Virus record (IMG/VR): IMGVR_UViG_3300005437_000001
Reading direction: 5' to 3' (one strand)
DNA: 20,000 nt
Source: an uncultured virus (IMG/VR IMGVR_UViG_3300005437_000001)
Taxonomy: Duplodnaviria; Heunggongvirae; Uroviricota; Caudoviricetes
Made by a program: the position numbers and the translations under genes. Under the pieces are notes generated by a model. That model did not search any database. It was given only the letters and a program-made list of their open reading frames with translations, and was not told the DNA's origin. This document shows positions 2,942 to 15,367 of the stretch, in pieces (within the stretch, counting starts at the first letter, position 1; each line of letters starts with the position of its first letter).

Positions 2942-2983
2942 GGCGGCGCCCCGGACCCGTGGTGGGAGGTCTGGGGCGCCGCC
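2942..2983. terminator. probable bidirectional terminator hairpin
   Basis: 16-bp stem (one G-U) ggcggcgccccggacc/ggtctggggcgccgcc between convergent genes. Confidence 0.75.
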
Positions 2984-3011
2984 TTGCCGGTCTCTGGGCG
3001 GTACCAGTGTA

Positions 3012-3194
3012 TCAGTCGGAGACGACCAGCGTGAGCTTGCCCTTGGTGATCTTGCGGATGTCGGCCACCTGCAGGCCGTTCTGCGAGAACGCGGCCTCCA
3101 GGGCGGTCTGCATGCCCTCGGCGGTGTAGGGCTCGCCGTACAGGGCGGTGTCCTTCTCGTCGTCGGTCTCCACGACGATGGCGAATCTGGCCAC
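3012..3194 (-). CDS. 60-aa hypothetical protein (VARFAIVVET...)
   Basis: AGGAGG RBS before GTG; strong codon bias; upstream promoter. Confidence 0.8.
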   Translation of the reverse strand: MARFAIVVETDDEKDTALYGEPYTAEGMQTALEAAFSQNGLQVADIRKITKGKLTLVVSD

Positions 3195-3502: not shown

Positions 3503-3622
3503 GAGACCTCGATTCAGTGGTCGATATGGCATGGGAGGGGTGGCGCAGGACGGGCGCCACCCCACCACACTCCTTGCGCGGTCGTCCAGTGCTACCCACC
3601 GTGCGGCTGGTACCATGGGAGC

Positions 3623-4781: not shown

Positions 4782-5074
4782 GCCGATTGCTCCTTGATCC
4801 ACTGGTTGACGGTGTCGTAAGAGAACAGGACGCCCGCACGGCGCTCACCCTCGGGGTGGGCGTCCCACCACGCGGTCAGCCGCTCGTTGTGCAGGTCCAT
4901 GACCACCCGGAACACCCGGTCCAGGGCGCCGTCCAGGGTGCGGGCCCGGCCGATCGCGGCGGAGATCTGCGCGTCGGTCAGGTCGGCCAGGCTGGCGCAA
5001 CCGATGCTCCAGCGTCCGAGGTTCTCGGCGACGTGGTCCTTGACCTGCTGGGTGAGTTCCTGCTGCCGGGTCAT
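4778..5074 (-). CDS. hypothetical protein (MTRQQELTQQV...), related to the C-terminus of 19419-19958
   Basis: GAGGGAG RBS; shared IG.A.T..GA...V motif. Confidence 0.75.
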   Translation of the reverse strand: MTRQQELTQQVKDHVAENLGRWSIGCASLADLTDAQISAAIGRARTLDGALDRVFRVVMDLHNERLTAWWDAHPEGERRAGVLFSYDTVNQWIKEQSA

Positions 5075-5103
5075 CGTCGTCTCCCTCAGTCCGTGAGTCG
5101 GGC

Positions 5104-5340
5104 TCACCAGCGGGCCCACAGCACCTTCAGGGTCTTGACGCTGGCGCGGTGGTCCTTGGGGTCCACCTCGGCCGTGTTCAGCGACCCGCTGTAGAGGTTG
5201 GTCAGCTGCAGCCGGGCCTCGACCATGGCGTCCTGGATCGTCTCGTAGCCGCCAGTCGTCCGGCAGCCCGCGAACACCCAGCGCCCGCCCGGGTTGTTGA
5301 AGCTGACCTCGGTGCCCTCGATCGTCCTGGTCTCGGCCAT
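5104..5340 (-). CDS. hypothetical protein (MAETRTIEGT...)
   Basis: First gene after a class I promoter; codon bias. Confidence 0.8.
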   Translation of the reverse strand: MAETRTIEGTEVSFNNPGGRWVFAGCRTTGGYETIQDAMVEARLQLTNLYSGSLNTAEVDPKDHRASVKTLKVLWARW

Positions 5341-5359
5341 CGCCCTGTCCCTTCGTCCG

Positions 5360-5413
5360 GCGGCCGGTCGGCCGCTCTATTACTAGTAAACCACCCCCTT
5401 GACCGTCTGTCAA
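5360..5413 (-). promoter_or_regulatory. class I promoter cassette
   Basis: Minus strand TTGAC-agacg-GTCAA (5413-5399); TTGACA-N17-TTTACT; hairpin gcggcc/ggccgc. Confidence 0.85.
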
Positions 5414-5441
5414 GTTCAAGGTTGACGTTGGTCAGGACCAC

Positions 5442-5471
5442 TTGCGCCCCTGCGAAGCGGCGGGGTACGGT
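5442..5471 (+). promoter_or_regulatory. putative promoter of the RNA cassette
   Basis: TTGCGC-N18-TACGGT; six nt later the first hairpin begins at 5478. Confidence 0.55.
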
Positions 5472-5477
5472 GGGTGT

Positions 5478-5577
5478 GTGCCCGGTCCGGCGGCCTCCCC
5501 GATCCGCCGGGGGCACGGCCCGCCAGCAGGCGGCCGGACGGCGCCACCCCCCCGCCCCGTCCGGCCGCCGGTCTGGC
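5478..5577 (+). ncRNA. 6C-like RNA (two adjacent GC-rich hairpins with C-rich loops)
   Basis: Hairpin 1 5478-5516 with loop CCTCCCCGAT; hairpin 2 with 13-bp stem 5529-5541/5557-5569 and loop containing C7 (5547-5553); no credible ORF. Confidence 0.6.
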
Positions 5578-5579
5578 AG

Positions 5580-5663
5580 GGGAGCTGTGGCGCAGCGGCC
5601 AGCGCGTCGAGCCAACAAGCGGTAAAGGCTCGAAGGTCCCGGGTTCGAACCCCGGCGCTCCCA
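5580..5663 (+). tRNA. tRNA-like element with non-canonical anticodon arm; isotype not assignable
   Basis: Acceptor GGGAGC/GCTCCC with an extra T; D arm GCGC-AGCGGCCA-GCGC; T arm CCGGG-TTCGAAC-CCCGG; anticodon arm is a 7-bp stem plus 13-nt loop; no encoded CCA. Confidence 0.8.
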
Positions 5664-5760
5664 CCGTTCGACAGCAGGAGGCAGCAGCCTGGACGCGTAA
5701 CCGTGGTCGCACACACGGCGATAGTCTGGCCGGGCACCACACCGGTCTGCGAACGAGTAC

Positions 5761-5795
5761 CCGGCCCGGTGCTGCCGAGAGGCGCACCGGGCCGG
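5761..5795 (+). terminator. strong hairpin (terminator or structured RNA end)
   Basis: 12-bp stem ccggcccggtgc/gcaccgggccgg capped by gcc-GAGA-ggc. Confidence 0.55.
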
Positions 5796-5820
5796 TGTCA
5801 TCCGCGCTGGGAGGTGCGCC

Positions 5821-6222
5821 GTGAGACCGAATGTCCGACCGTGGCCGGTGATGGTCGTGTGGCTGATGCTGCTGGGCAGCTGGTGGGTCGTGCGGGTCCT
5901 GTGCTGGGAGCTGCCCCGGCTGGCGTGGGACCTCGTATCCGCCCGGTGGGATTGTCAGGCGGTCAAGCCGCGTGATGGAGTTCCGGCATGGACGAGATCA
6001 TACCCGGAGACGAGAGAGAGTGGGTCGCCGCCGCACAGGCGGGGGACCCTGACGCGTTCGGCCGGATCTACAGCGCCACTGTCGGGCGGGTGCGCGGGTA
6101 CGTGCGGGTGCGGTGTCGGACCCCGGCCGACGCCGAGGACACGGTACAGGACGTTTACCTCAAGGCGTGGCGCAGTATCGGTTCGTATTCGCATGAGCGG
6201 CCGATCGTCGCGTGGCTGGTGA
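5821..6222 (+). CDS. possible membrane protein; 3' part overlaps the sigma gene
   Basis: GGAGGT RBS before GTG; hydrophobic Trp-rich N-terminus. Confidence 0.4.
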   Translation: MRPNVRPWPVMVVWLMLLGSWWVVRVLCWELPRLAWDLVSARWDCQAVKPRDGVPAWTRSYPETRESGSPPHRRGTLTRSAGSTAPLSGGCAGTCGCGVGPRPTPRTRYRTFTSRRGAVSVRIRMSGRSSRGW

Positions 6223-6560
6223 CGATAGCACACAACCGCCTGGCCGACCAGGCCCGGGTGGGCGCGCGCCGCCGGGCGATCGCGGACGTGGCGGTGGGGC
6301 TGGAGGGGGTCGAAGTCGAGCTGGTGTCGGACCGGTGTCCGGGGCCGGAGGATAGGATGCTGATGCGCGAGGAGGCGTCGGCCGCCGTGTCGCTGCTGCG
6401 GGGGATACCGCTGCGGCGGGCGGCCGTAGTGGCGATGACGGCCGACGGATGGTCGACCGAGGAGATAGCGCAGGCGGTGGGGTGCAGCGAGAGCGGAGTC
6501 AGGGGTCTGAGATTCAGGGCGGTCGAGGCGGTGCGCGCCCGTGTCCAGACGGTGGTGTGA
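5988..6560 (+). CDS. ECF (sigma-70 group 4) sigma factor, BldN/AdsA-like
   Basis: Region 2 AQAGDPDAFGRIY...DAEDTVQDVYLKAW...AWLVTIAHNRLAD; region 4 HTH GWSTEEIAQAVGCSESGVRGLRFRAV. Confidence 0.92.
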   Translation: MDEIIPGDEREWVAAAQAGDPDAFGRIYSATVGRVRGYVRVRCRTPADAEDTVQDVYLKAWRSIGSYSHERPIVAWLVTIAHNRLADQARVGARRRAIADVAVGLEGVEVELVSDRCPGPEDRMLMREEASAAVSLLRGIPLRRAAVVAMTADGWSTEEIAQAVGCSESGVRGLRFRAVEAVRARVQTVV

Positions 6561-7146: not shown

Positions 7147-7203
7147 CAGCGAGTCAAATAGTAGTGTCCTGGTAGCAGTACTCGGTCCGGTGTATACTGG
7201 CAG

Positions 7204-7361
7204 GACCAGCTTCAGGCTGTGGGGAAGCAGCCGGGGCCGGAGCGGCCCAGAGTGCGCGCATGCCGGATGCCGACCTGTGGCCGGGACGACGGTCAGGAGA
7301 CTGGTCGAGGCGGGACAGCCCGCAAGTCGAGACCCCCGGTGGCCGAAAGCACGGGGGCCTC
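7204..7361 (+). ncRNA. candidate structured ncRNA
   Basis: TATACT 7193-7198; closing helix GACCAG 7204-7209/CTGGTC 7301-7306 enclosing several hairpins; two further hairpins to 7361. Confidence 0.45.
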
Positions 7362-7378
7362 GGCGCTATAATGACGGA

Positions 7379-7612
7379 GTGAGATACCCCTTTGACGAGT
7401 GGCTGGACGGCCGGGAGTGGACCCTGGTCCGGCCGCGCGACTTCACCGGTCCGGCCGAGACGATGGTCCACAGGCTCAGGAGTGCCGCCGCCGCCCGGGG
7501 CCGCACTCTGACCGCCGACATCCAGCCCGGCGGCAAGTTCATCACGATAAGGTCCGAGGCCAGGACCGTGGTCAGTGTTCAATCGGAGACGCAAGCGGGA
7601 GGGGTGGCGTAG
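7379..7612 (+). CDS. small hypothetical protein (VRYPFDEWLDGREW...), probably leaderless
   Basis: TATAAT-N6-GTG; abuts the next gene. Confidence 0.75.
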   Translation: MRYPFDEWLDGREWTLVRPRDFTGPAETMVHRLRSAAAARGRTLTADIQPGGKFITIRSEARTVVSVQSETQAGGVA

Positions 7613-8176
7613 GTGACCGAGACGATCGACGACGAGCCGCCGCCCGGGTTCCTCAAGAGCCCGGCGGCGATCGCCCGGTGGAACCGCGAGAAGGCCCAGA
7701 AGCGGTGGCTGCGGCAGCAGGCGTACGACCTGCGCAAGACCAACCACTCGCTGGCGCAGATCGCGGCGATCCAGGGCTGCACGATCGCCACGGCCCGCAA
7801 GCGGTACGAGCAGGCGATCAAGGAGTACGTTCCGGAAGAGCTGATCAAAGAGATCCGCGCGATGGAGCTGGACCGGTACGACGCCCTGCAGCAGACACTC
7901 CTGCCGATGATTGAGGAGCGCCGTCGGCTCAAGGATGTCGATGGGTTTATGAAGCTGTTCAACGGGTACCTGTCGGTGAGCGACCGGCGGATCAAGCTGA
8001 CGGGCGCGGCGGCGCCGGTCCAGGTTAGGATCGACGGCACCATCGTGCAGGAGTCCGAGCAGGACCGGGAGCTGAAGCGGCTGATCAAGGACGCCGAAGA
8101 GGTAAACCGGGAGTTCGACCGGATGGCGTCGGCGGCCGGAGCGCAGGACGAGGAGCCATGGACGTCAGGAAGCTGA
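7613..8176 (+). CDS. HTH protein, probable terminase small subunit
   Basis: HTH AYDLRK..HSLAQIAAIQGCTIATARKRY, then ELDRYDAL...DRRIKLTGAAAP as in actinophage TerS-like proteins; GGAGG RBS. Confidence 0.7.
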   Translation: MTETIDDEPPPGFLKSPAAIARWNREKAQKRWLRQQAYDLRKTNHSLAQIAAIQGCTIATARKRYEQAIKEYVPEELIKEIRAMELDRYDALQQTLLPMIEERRRLKDVDGFMKLFNGYLSVSDRRIKLTGAAAPVQVRIDGTIVQESEQDRELKRLIKDAEEVNREFDRMASAAGAQDEEPWTSGS

Positions 8177-13696: not shown

Positions 13697-15367
13697 GTGA
13701 CGGTAACCGAGGACGCCACCTCTCTCAATTTCGGCGACAGCGATTCAGTAGGGTCGACTGACGCGGGAGGGGTGGCGTACCTGGCCGGGCTCACATCTAC
13801 CGACCTGAACCCGCAGGCGTACGTCACCCGGCATCACCCCAAGCTACTCAAGTCGCCCGAGGGCCGCCGCGCCCTGACCAAGTACGACCCCCTCCTGTTC
13901 GCCCTGCTGTATCTGCGCCACCATCTGCGGGCGCCAGCCACGAGAAACCGGATCACCCTTTGTGACGCGCACCTGGAGTGGTGCCAGCAGGCACTGCAGC
14001 GGGTGCTGACTCCGGCCCTGCGGCCACGGCAGAACCGGGACGCCTACGTCGCCCCGCGTGAGACTGGCAAGTCGACGTGGCACTTCCTGATCCTGCCGCT
14101 GTGGGAGGCGGCGCACGGGCACCGCAAGTTCATCGCCGCCTTTGCCGACTCGGGCACCCAGGCGGAGATGCACCTGCAGACGTTCAAGAACGAGCTGGAC
14201 ACCAACACCCTGCTGAAAAGGGACTTCCCCGACCTGTGCGAGCCCGCCGTCCGGGCGCGCGGGATGACGCTGTCGGACACCAAGGGCCTGACGATCCGCA
14301 AGTCGGGGTTCGTGTTCGGGGCGCGCGGCGCCGACTCCAAGACCCTGGGCATGAAGGTCGGCCACACACGGCCGGACAAGCTGATCCTGGACGACATCGA
14401 GCCGGGCGAGGACCAGTACAGCGAGTACCAGATCGAAGGCCGTCTGAACACGGTCACCGATGTCATCATGCCGCTGAACGAGTACGCCGACGTGGTGATC
14501 TCGGGCACGGTGACCATGCCCGGCTCGATCGTGCACCAGCTGGTCAAATCGGTCACGGAGCCGGACGAGGAGCACCCGGAGTGGATCCGGGAGCAGAACA
14601 TACGGGTGCACTACCACGCCCCGATCATCGTCGCCGACGACGGGTCGGAGCGCTCCATCTGGCCCGCCAAGTGGCCGCTGGACTACCTGCTGGGGATCCG
14701 GCACACGCGGTCGTATCTCAAGAACTTTGCCAACAGCCCGATGGGCCTGGATGGGGACTACTGGTCCAAGGACGACTTCGAGTATGGGTCGCTGCCGTTC
14801 AAGACCAAGGTGGCGCTGTCGATCGACCCAGCCGACAAGACCAAGAAGACCAGCGACTGGACCGGGTTGGCCGTGGTCGGCTGGATGCCGCCGCCCAGGA
14901 AGGACCCCCGGCGCCAGACCACTGATGCCGAGGACATCACGGCCATGATATTCGGCAACCTGGGCGCGTGCGAGGTCATGCACGCCGAGCAGGTCAAGCT
15001 GGTCGGAGAGCGCCTGCGCCAGAAGGTGCTGCAGATCCTGGAGGCGTTCCCGGAGATCGGCCTGGTCGTGGTCGAGGTCAACAAGGGCGGCGAGCACTGG
15101 TACGACATCCTGCACCATCTGCCGTGCAAGATCCAGCTGATCGACTCCACCATCGACAAGCGGGTGCGGGCAGCGCACGCGCTGGCGCACTACCAGCGCC
15201 ACCGGGTCAAGCACACCCAGCGCATGTCGGCGCTGGAGGAGCAGATGGTCGGCTTCCCCAAGGCTCCGAACGACGACATGGTGGACGCCGTCGGCGCGCT
15301 GGTCACCAGGTTCCTGCGCCGACCTGAGGCCAAGCCCGGCGTGCGCGCCGTGGGCGGATACGCGTAG
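13697..15367 (+). CDS. terL: terminase large subunit
   Basis: Walker A APRETGKST, Walker B LILDDIE, nuclease motifs SIDPA, DWTG and FPKAPNDDMVDA. Confidence 0.95.
   Translation: MTVTEDATSLNFGDSDSVGSTDAGGVAYLAGLTSTDLNPQAYVTRHHPKLLKSPEGRRALTKYDPLLFALLYLRHHLRAPATRNRITLCDAHLEWCQQALQRVLTPALRPRQNRDAYVAPRETGKSTWHFLILPLWEAAHGHRKFIAAFADSGTQAEMHLQTFKNELDTNTLLKRDFPDLCEPAVRARGMTLSDTKGLTIRKSGFVFGARGADSKTLGMKVGHTRPDKLILDDIEPGEDQYSEYQIEGRLNTVTDVIMPLNEYADVVISGTVTMPGSIVHQLVKSVTEPDEEHPEWIREQNIRVHYHAPIIVADDGSERSIWPAKWPLDYLLGIRHTRSYLKNFANSPMGLDGDYWSKDDFEYGSLPFKTKVALSIDPADKTKKTSDWTGLAVVGWMPPPRKDPRRQTTDAEDITAMIFGNLGACEVMHAEQVKLVGERLRQKVLQILEAFPEIGLVVVEVNKGGEHWYDILHHLPCKIQLIDSTIDKRVRAAHALAHYQRHRVKHTQRMSALEEQMVGFPKAPNDDMVDAVGALVTRFLRRPEAKPGVRAVGGYA

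Follow-up and report, generated by a model that had tools for sequence, protein, structure and literature searches.

Two hairpins with cytosine-rich loops lie next to each other at positions 5478-5577 of a stretch of DNA from an uncultured virus (IMG/VR record IMGVR_UViG_3300005437_000001). A first-pass annotation of the sequence described them as a phage-encoded RNA of the 6C type known from actinobacteria, with anti-Shine-Dalgarno-like loops that could repress host translation, mimic the host RNA or switch early to late phage genes. The locus raises two questions: whether the element belongs to the 6C family and, if it does not, what its loops might pair with. Throughout, 'the window' denotes the whole 20,000-nt stretch analysed. 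It has 68.5% G+C and comes from a 42-kb record judged 55% complete, from which it differs at two bases, 8026 and 11573. That the DNA is of phage origin was confirmed by the genes in the window, which encode the terminase large subunit, a dUTPase and an ECF-type sigma factor among other phage proteins.

Fold and genomic context of the hairpins

The prediction of two tandem stable hairpins with C-rich loops was borne out by folding. On the plus strand, 5478-5577 has a minimum free energy (MFE) of -67.9 kcal/mol, compared with -56.5 +/- 3.5 kcal/mol for 200 dinucleotide shuffles (z -3.21), and none of the 200 shuffles folded as stably. Neither of the C-rich loops is paired in the MFE or in the centroid fold, and both hairpins persist when the entire predicted transcript, 5478-5800, is folded. 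Loop 1 holds the core of an anti-Shine-Dalgarno sequence, as had been proposed. Since the minus strand of the same stretch is equally stable (z -3.13), the fold alone does not allow a choice of strand. We place the hairpins on the plus strand because of their context, namely a tRNA-like element and a predicted promoter whose -10 recurs in relatives, both of which are on that strand (Table 1).

The hairpin stretch consists of 50% C and 37% G (86% G+C). In a census of six phage sequences, C-rich loops (at least 60% C) made up 144 of 1488 predicted stable-hairpin loops of at least 5 nt, or about 10%; this census, like a second one, is too permissive for a sharp estimate of how often C-rich loops arise by chance. 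Runs of at least six C were found in two of the 144, one of them being the element described here. An open frame that starts at GTG 5478 was considered as a gene and rejected, since its GC content by codon position, 0.80/0.72/0.68, is the reverse of the coding pattern, for which the terminase gene served as reference (0.65/0.42/0.93).

Table 1. Positions of the features discussed in the text, in window coordinates
Feature	Position	Strand	Description
Divergent 78-aa gene, no assigned function	5104-5340	-	GC3 0.95-0.97
Leftward sigma-70-like promoter of the 78-aa gene	5385-5413	-	-35 TTGACA (5413-5408), 17-nt spacer, -10 TTTACT (5390-5385); read from the sequence
Predicted rightward promoter	5442-5471	+	-35-like TTGCGC (5442-5447), 18-nt spacer, -10 TACGGT (5466-5471)
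Hairpin 1	5478-5516	+	6 + 7 pairs, 3-nt bulge; 10-nt loop CCUCCCCGAU at 5494-5503, includes CCUCC
Hairpin 2	5522-5577	+	About 21 pairs; apical 9-nt loop CACCCCCCC at 5545-5553, C7 at 5547-5553
Degenerate tRNA-Met-like element	5580-5665	+	Begins 3 nt past hairpin 2; Rfam tRNA and ARAGORN with the intron option
Terminator-like hairpin	5761-5795	+	12-bp stem CCGGCCCGGTGC/GCACCGGGCCGG, then UGUCAUCC; from the fold of the unit
Phage ECF-type sigma factor gene	5988-6560	+	Pfam Sigma70_r2 1.8e-14, r4_2 4.7e-07; phrog_1740
Motif copy	3533-3545	+	Predicted cis pairing with CGCCACCCC at 3555-3563
Motif copy	7597-7609	+	End of upstream ORF, 8-9 nt before GTG 7613 (phrog_645 gene); kept in L021
Motif copy	13765-13777	+	Before or at the terminase large-subunit start (GTG 13772 in frame)

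The start of transcription predicted from the rightward promoter, at about 5478, coincides with the first base of hairpin 1. A strict scan for the E. coli-type promoter consensus found no promoter. In related phages a -10 of the form TAnnGT, with GG or CG directly after it, occupies this position ahead of the tRNA leader (TACGGT in L003, TAGAGT in L025 and L008, TAGGGT in L026/L033). On the other side, the divergent 78-aa gene gave no match in Pfam or PHROG, and the -35 of its promoter sits within a palindrome, TTGACCGTCTGTCAAGT (5399-5415). A palindromic -35 region of this kind, TTGACnnnCnGnCAAG, characterizes a family of promoter-like sites at 1724, 2502, 3251, 5399, 5952, 15857 and 17134 (minus strand) of the window. 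Several such sites in the window and the record carry a -10 of the type TGGTnTACT, and the sequences suggest that the palindrome is an operator overlapping the -35.

The element that follows the hairpins resembles a tRNA without being a regular one. The Rfam tRNA model (RF00005) scored 40 bits on 5581-5663, above its cut-off of 29, and ARAGORN called no tRNA at 5580-5665 by default, doing so only with the intron option. Its D- and T-arms are preserved, as are the elbow bases. However, the anticodon loop has 15-17 nt instead of seven, and in place of a regular 7-bp acceptor stem there are two mismatches in the register of Rfam or a one-base slip between acceptor and connector in that of ARAGORN. 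Alignment to the tRNA-Met of related phages places a 10-nt insertion in the anticodon region. The element might be a pseudogene in decay, serve as a handle for processing or act as a decoy.

According to the fold of the unit, the hairpin at 5761-5795 likely ends it, although it has no canonical U-tract and a scan of 5000-6200 for intrinsic terminators found none. Hairpins 1 and 2 could themselves be terminators or insulators that separate the divergent promoters from the genes downstream by ending transcription or making it pause. Their stems are very strong, generic GC hairpins follow tRNAs in the relatives, and C-rich stem-loops that have no U-tract have been proposed as terminators in actinobacteria. 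We nevertheless consider this role improbable: the hairpins come directly past the predicted start and directly before the tRNA-like element, which they would cut off; no T run follows either of them on either strand; and a separate terminator-like hairpin is present further on.

The next gene downstream opens at GTG 5821 with the ribosome-binding site (RBS) GGGAGG. The third-position GC signal tracks this frame (5821-6222, with a hydrophobic N-terminus) to about 5985 and then shifts to that of the sigma factor gene, which begins at ATG 5988; the first frame remains open as far as 6222. The ATG of the sigma factor gene lies only 8 nt past a promoter-like site, TTGTCA-17-ATGGAG, so the sigma factor mRNA may be leaderless.

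Contigs of related phages were retrieved by means of the terminase and a conserved 99-aa protein, at 50-77% protein identity. Four related lineages (L003, L008, L025 and L026/L033) have a common layout, in which a divergent gene is followed by the TAnnGT -10, a structured leader and a canonical tRNA-Met(CAU). Their leaders, 57-149 nt long, fold with z -1.6 to -4.4, and the folded part begins 0-4 nt from the predicted start and extends to a few nucleotides before the tRNA. Further downstream lies a sigma factor gene in L003, and also in L006/L028, there after a tRNA-Ile; the conserved 99-aa gene is found downstream in some of the loci. Because the tRNA-like element aligns with the tRNA-Met of these phages, the 100 nt described here are the positional counterpart of a tRNA-Met leader. 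The leaders of the relatives have no detectable sequence in common with it. The loops of the relatives' leaders (ACCA, GUUAG, GGGA, UGCG, GGUA, GAUCGUA, AGUCA and AAUUAAAUA; 4-9 nt) are not C-rich, so the conservation that would be expected of 6C-like loops is missing among leaders at this position, and a generic leader role does not need C-loops. The leader described here is the most G+C-rich and the most stable of the five, at -0.68 kcal/mol per nt versus -0.40 to -0.55.

Searches for sequence homologues of the leader found none outside the same phage. Comparison of 5340-5820 with 50,697 phage records by blastn gave no match, and three exact-pattern scans of IMG/VR returned the same phage only. 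A covariance model of the leader, R1, found no convincing homologue in five records and 13 loci; its best foreign match, 26.6 bits in L025, was rejected as a hairpin pair that follows the tRNA-Met and has no C-rich loops. The sigma protein had one match at 26% in the 50,697 phage records, and in IMG/VR only an identical copy from the same phage (L002). Its closest relatives are P0002 (84%, an ENA contig) and L021 (85%, from a metagenome scan), the contig of the latter beginning inside the sigma gene.

Some observations on these loci are recorded here in their own right. L003 has a second odd tRNA-like element at 2982-3081, between tRNA-Met and tRNA-Ile(UAU), whose acceptor, D- and T-arms are perfect; its anticodon region is longer by about 30 nt, and ARAGORN detects it only when introns are allowed. 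The 69-nt tRNA-Met(CAU) of L025 (3703-3771) and L026/L033 (3607-3675) has an unusual, shortened T-arm region and scores 51.5 bits with Rfam. L035, a 65-kb contig binned with an Actinocrinis MAG, contains the conserved 99-aa gene (59% identity) together with two tRNAs, arranged in the same way; this is no more than a hint at the host group. In the window itself, an apparently non-coding stretch at 7200-7372 follows a -10-like box, TGTATACT. Within it a 46-nt segment (7321-7366, with the hairpin GAGACCCCCGG...CACGGGGGCCTC) is 98% identical to 3880-3925 of L006, a phage otherwise about 70-77% identical. The segment matched no Rfam family; judged by its sequence, it is possibly another conserved RNA.

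Comparison with the 6C family

The family is named, according to a published study of it (PMC6486639), after a run of about six or more cytosines in the hairpin loops. Run on 5350-5750, the Rfam 6C model (RF01066, curated cut-off 47 bits) gave no match at E<=10. Over the full 42-kb record it gave none on the hairpins, and its best score elsewhere, 17.3 bits, lay inside the sigma gene. As a positive control on likely relatives of the host, the model scored 53.5 bits in an Actinocrinis MAG, one of whose contigs is related to the phage. Scores above the cut-off (47-66 bits) were obtained in 23 of 41 actinomycete genomes of the same class as this MAG; the count includes the unpublished genomes G019, G028, G036 and G040 and becomes 19 of 37 when they are left out. 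Other Rfam families matched at E<=10 in 5350-5750 were only tRNA and a permuted tmRNA, the latter an 11.9-bit echo of the T-arm.

We also compared the element with 12 fetched actinomycete 6C sequences. These are 73-77 nt long and have six to eight C in a run in their loops; a run of at least six C is present in loop 1 of all 12 and in loop 2 of 11. In their alignment the stem of hairpin 2, CCCCCGC...GCGGGGG, is invariant. The phage element has GGCGGCCGGACGG/CCGUCCGGCCGCC in its place, measures 100 nt and carries a long C run in one loop only, C7 in loop 2, the longest run in loop 1 being four. A class-specific model built from the 12 sequences, R2, was used with filters off. It gave 10.5 bits on the phage hairpins, for 5538-5560 and model positions 7-30 only, and 8.3 bits on hairpin 1, for 5481-5516 with the second hairpin deleted, so that each score covers a single hairpin module. 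Ordinary GC hairpins in the window and in related phage loci scored higher, 16-24 bits.

Because both the Rfam and the R2 results are negative, we reject membership of the element in the 6C family. It is very improbable that the element is a true or captured 6C RNA that mimics the one of the host. Two tandem hairpins, the resemblance of loop 2 to 6C loops such as ACCCCCCC and the identity of CCGGTCCGGC at 5482-5491 to the consensus 5' side of 6C hairpin 1 would fit such an origin, but set against them are the missing match to a model that works in other genomes, the low and partial R2 scores and the differences in stem, loop 1 and length. The architecture to which the first-pass annotation appealed, two hairpins with C-rich loops in the general shape of the 12 real 6C RNAs, does exist in the phage; the kinship read from it does not, and nothing was found that points to mimicry of the host RNA. 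The term '6C-like' fits only by analogy, in shape and in possible mechanism. C-loops are a common actinobacterial device and not a mark of 6C.

Loop 2 and a repeated G-rich motif

A G-rich motif of 13 nt, GGGAGGGGTGGCG, occurs in about 11 copies on the coding strand, in one orientation, at or near gene starts. Its core, GGGGTGGCG, is found eight times on the plus strand of the 42-kb record versus 1.2 expected, with a maximum of five in 200 shuffles. Counted with up to two mismatches, the 13-mer is present 10 times in the window versus 3.3 +/- 1.8, a number that none of 200 shuffles reached. There are 14 plus-strand matches to the 13-mer in the record; those at 5580, 9807 and 17165 have no G-run and were set aside, which leaves 11 sites. 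Besides the exact copies at 3533, 7597 and 13765, further sites in the record lie, in the numbering of the window, at -8658, -5165, -2963, -191, 20094, 25101 and 30328.

At six of the 11 sites a GTG within the motif is in frame with a long GC3-rich open reading frame (ORF), including those of the DNA polymerase, a dUTPase-domain protein and the terminase. At three more the gene opens at a GTG 15-17 nt past the start of the motif (portal, the phrog_645 gene and a gene at the record's end). TTCAGT or TTCAAT stands 12-15 nt upstream at eight of the 11 sites. Some copies lie in short intergenic gaps and one at the end of an upstream ORF; at three of 10 sites the motif is inside an uninterrupted, coding-looking frame, reading ...GGVA.... 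An ORF runs through or into the motif at four of 10 sites, and so the motif is part of the mRNA there. The motif was kept in L021 while the spacer upstream diverged, and it is absent from more distant relatives. Judged by its sequence, the motif may serve as a promoter, perhaps one read by the phage sigma factor, as a signal for start sites, as an internal start, or as promoter and start signal together. Were it the promoter of leaderless transcripts, those mRNAs would lack most of it.

Individual copies have features of their own. At 3533-3563 an exact complement of part of the motif follows the motif copy after 9 nt, with a predicted 10-bp hairpin; the site could give rise to another small RNA or to a 5' end that masks itself. 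The same copy, preceded by TTGACG-18-TTCAGT, is the only copy of the module with a good -35. At 7604-7615 of the window and at record site 30328 we noted mini-frames (GTG GCG TAG/GTG, and GTG GTG CAG TGA overlapping GTG) in which a stop and the real start come directly after the GTG of the motif, a layout typical of translational coupling. In the tRNA-like element the first 13 nt, GGGAGCTGTGGCG, match the motif with two mismatches, and GTGGCGCAG (5587-5595) is identical to the 3' end of the motif plus the next bases at sites 3533, 20094 and 25101.

Loop 2 is complementary to this motif. Motif positions 5-13 are complemented exactly by CGCCACCCC at 5542-5550, which takes in inner pairs and the loop of hairpin 2, and loop 2 with its flank pairs with 12 of the 13 positions overall. 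CCUCCC in loop 1 complements positions 1-6, which is equally plain Shine-Dalgarno complementarity. A 16-nt probe containing loop 2 gave a mean duplex energy of -36.4 kcal/mol for its top 10 matches, compared with -29.8 +/- 1.35 for 150 composition-matched shuffles, none of which reached it. The eight best plus-strand matches listed were all with the motif or a close variant, seven of them among the 11 retained sites. Both the motif and the C-loops are present in this lineage, and both are absent in more distant relatives.

The link between loop and motif was found post hoc, in a leader that is half C, and the chance figures have to be read with this in mind. Of the shuffled leaders, 2.1-3.4% contained an exact match of at least 9 nt to the complement of the motif. 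No enrichment was seen for the anti-motif 9-mer (three copies versus 1.1 expected; P(>=2) 0.33), and its other copies, at 21822 and 28773, are not in clear loops. Co-folding of the leader gave -6 to -25 kcal/mol with seven motif start regions and -3 to -9 kcal/mol with eight controls, values to which we give no weight since the algorithm melts the hairpins and is unable to represent pairing between a loop and its target. The features that define C-rich-loop antisense RNAs, unpaired C-loops and complementary G-rich sites at translation starts, are present here in silico only.

These results alter the translation switch that had been proposed for the element. Loop 2 does complement a repeated G-rich module at gene starts. 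The GAGGAG-type RBS that class I genes carry, which had been named as the target, is not, however, its best complement. The 'class II' sites had been expected to offer no target, and the GGGAGGGGTGGCG module, taken as those sites, is the one that loop 2 complements best.

The main rival of an antisense role is a purely structural leader, whose hairpins would protect the 5' end of a tRNA or tRNA-like precursor or aid its folding or processing; the match in the loop would be a by-product of a C-skewed sequence with 86% G+C. We hold this to be a serious possibility, if one that falls well short of an even chance. In its favour, all five leaders are structured, with a helix from the predicted 5' end, regardless of loop sequence; C-rich loops are as frequent in these phages as the census indicates; and motif matches of this length arise in 2-3% of shuffled leaders, with no enrichment of the anti-motif. 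On the other hand, the tRNA is degenerate here and leaves little for a leader to serve by tRNA maturation alone, the leader stands out from the other four in G+C content and stability, and the match lies exactly in the apical loop with a pairing energy that the shuffled probes did not attain.

The complementarity could also have its cause in the DNA. Read on the minus strand, the apex of hairpin 2 (CGGGGGGGTGGCG, 5554-5542) matches the 13-bp motif with two mismatches, and as an inverted twelfth copy it might be bound, possibly on a cruciform, by a protein or sigma factor that reads the motif; the phage does encode a sigma factor of its own. But the upstream TTCAGT box, present at most motif sites, is missing at hairpin 2, all other copies of the module face in the direction of the genes, and the perfect 13-bp arms around this copy would be unexplained by a duplex binding site. 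A DNA-level element therefore appears quite improbable to us.

Proposed role and known systems

The reading that we favour, tentatively and at somewhat less than an even chance, is a leader-derived C-loop antisense RNA that acts on the phage's own gene starts by a 6C-like mechanism while being unrelated to 6C. The locus would be a small non-coding unit, in which a host-type promoter is followed by the two hairpins, the degenerate tRNA-Met-like element and the terminator-like hairpin. The 100 nt would form the structured 5' leader of this unit, in which decay of the tRNA part would have left a handle for processing. Cleavage by RNase P where the tRNA-like element begins would liberate a leader RNA of about 102 nt that comprises both hairpins. 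Its single-stranded loops would be antisense to the repeated G-rich module, GGGAGGGGUGGCG, and by covering the starts of replication and packaging genes the pairing may lower or time their translation. The mechanism would be that shown for 6C, reached independently. A more detailed version, in which a tRNA-Met gene was reduced to an RNase P handle and an early antisense leader, having arisen together with the start module, masks that module at the DNA polymerase, terminase, portal and other genes and so times middle and late translation, seems to us unlikely to hold as a whole. The element is, in sum, a lineage-specific, tRNA-linked leader with a specific but unproven in silico link to a repeated start module.

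Should the leader function as an antisense RNA, an actinobacterial phage would encode a C-loop regulator of its own, of which we found no printed case: the literature searched gave no paper linking 6C RNA to actinobacteriophages and, among the titles listed, none on such an RNA in phages of Streptomyces or mycobacteria, and in a 2025 review of phage-derived small RNAs a search for the terms mycobacteriophage, Streptomyces, Actinobacteria and tRNA found no mention of them. It would also mean that decay of a tRNA gene could turn it into a signal for the processing of the leader that precedes it, and that the 6C-type mechanism of a C-loop on a G-rich start site could be re-invented outside the 6C family. 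A leader with a purely structural role would make the finding an ordinary one, the lesson being that C-rich loops in a sequence with 86% G+C do not make a 6C.

Several known systems resemble the proposed one in part. T4 species 1 and 2 are small stable RNAs that are co-transcribed with the T4 tRNA cluster. They too are non-coding RNAs of a phage and derive from precursors that also yield its tRNAs, but they come from a phage whose host belongs to a different phylum, and we know of no C-rich loops or antisense targets in them. The 3'ETS-leuZ of E. coli, the 3' spacer of a tRNA precursor, reportedly sponges small RNAs with Hfq. Common to it and to the role proposed here is a spacer of a tRNA transcript that is freed by tRNA-processing enzymes and acts by base pairing. 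In the present case the spacer is a 5' leader in a phage unit, the tRNA looks non-functional and the putative targets are start regions of mRNAs.

The tRNA-Met leaders of L003, L008, L025 and L026/L033 share position and gene order with the element and are likewise folded from their first bases. Unlike it, they precede a canonical tRNA-Met(CAU) and have loops of other composition, in addition to having no detectable sequence in common with it. The 6C RNA (RF01066; B11 or ncRv13660c in mycobacteria) shares with the element two adjacent GC-rich hairpins with C-rich apical loops, and loop 2 of the phage looks like the loops of the 12 fetched examples. The phage element differs from 6C in that it is phage-borne, is fused to a tRNA-like element rather than free-standing, has no covariance score, no invariant hairpin-2 stem and no U-rich tail, has CCUCCCC instead of C6-8 in loop 1 and is longer. 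In mycobacteria, according to the same study (PMC6486639), 6C uses its C-rich loops to bind G-rich RBS regions directly and needs no chaperone for this, and direct pairing of this kind is what we propose, as a possibility, for the phage loops and the start module.
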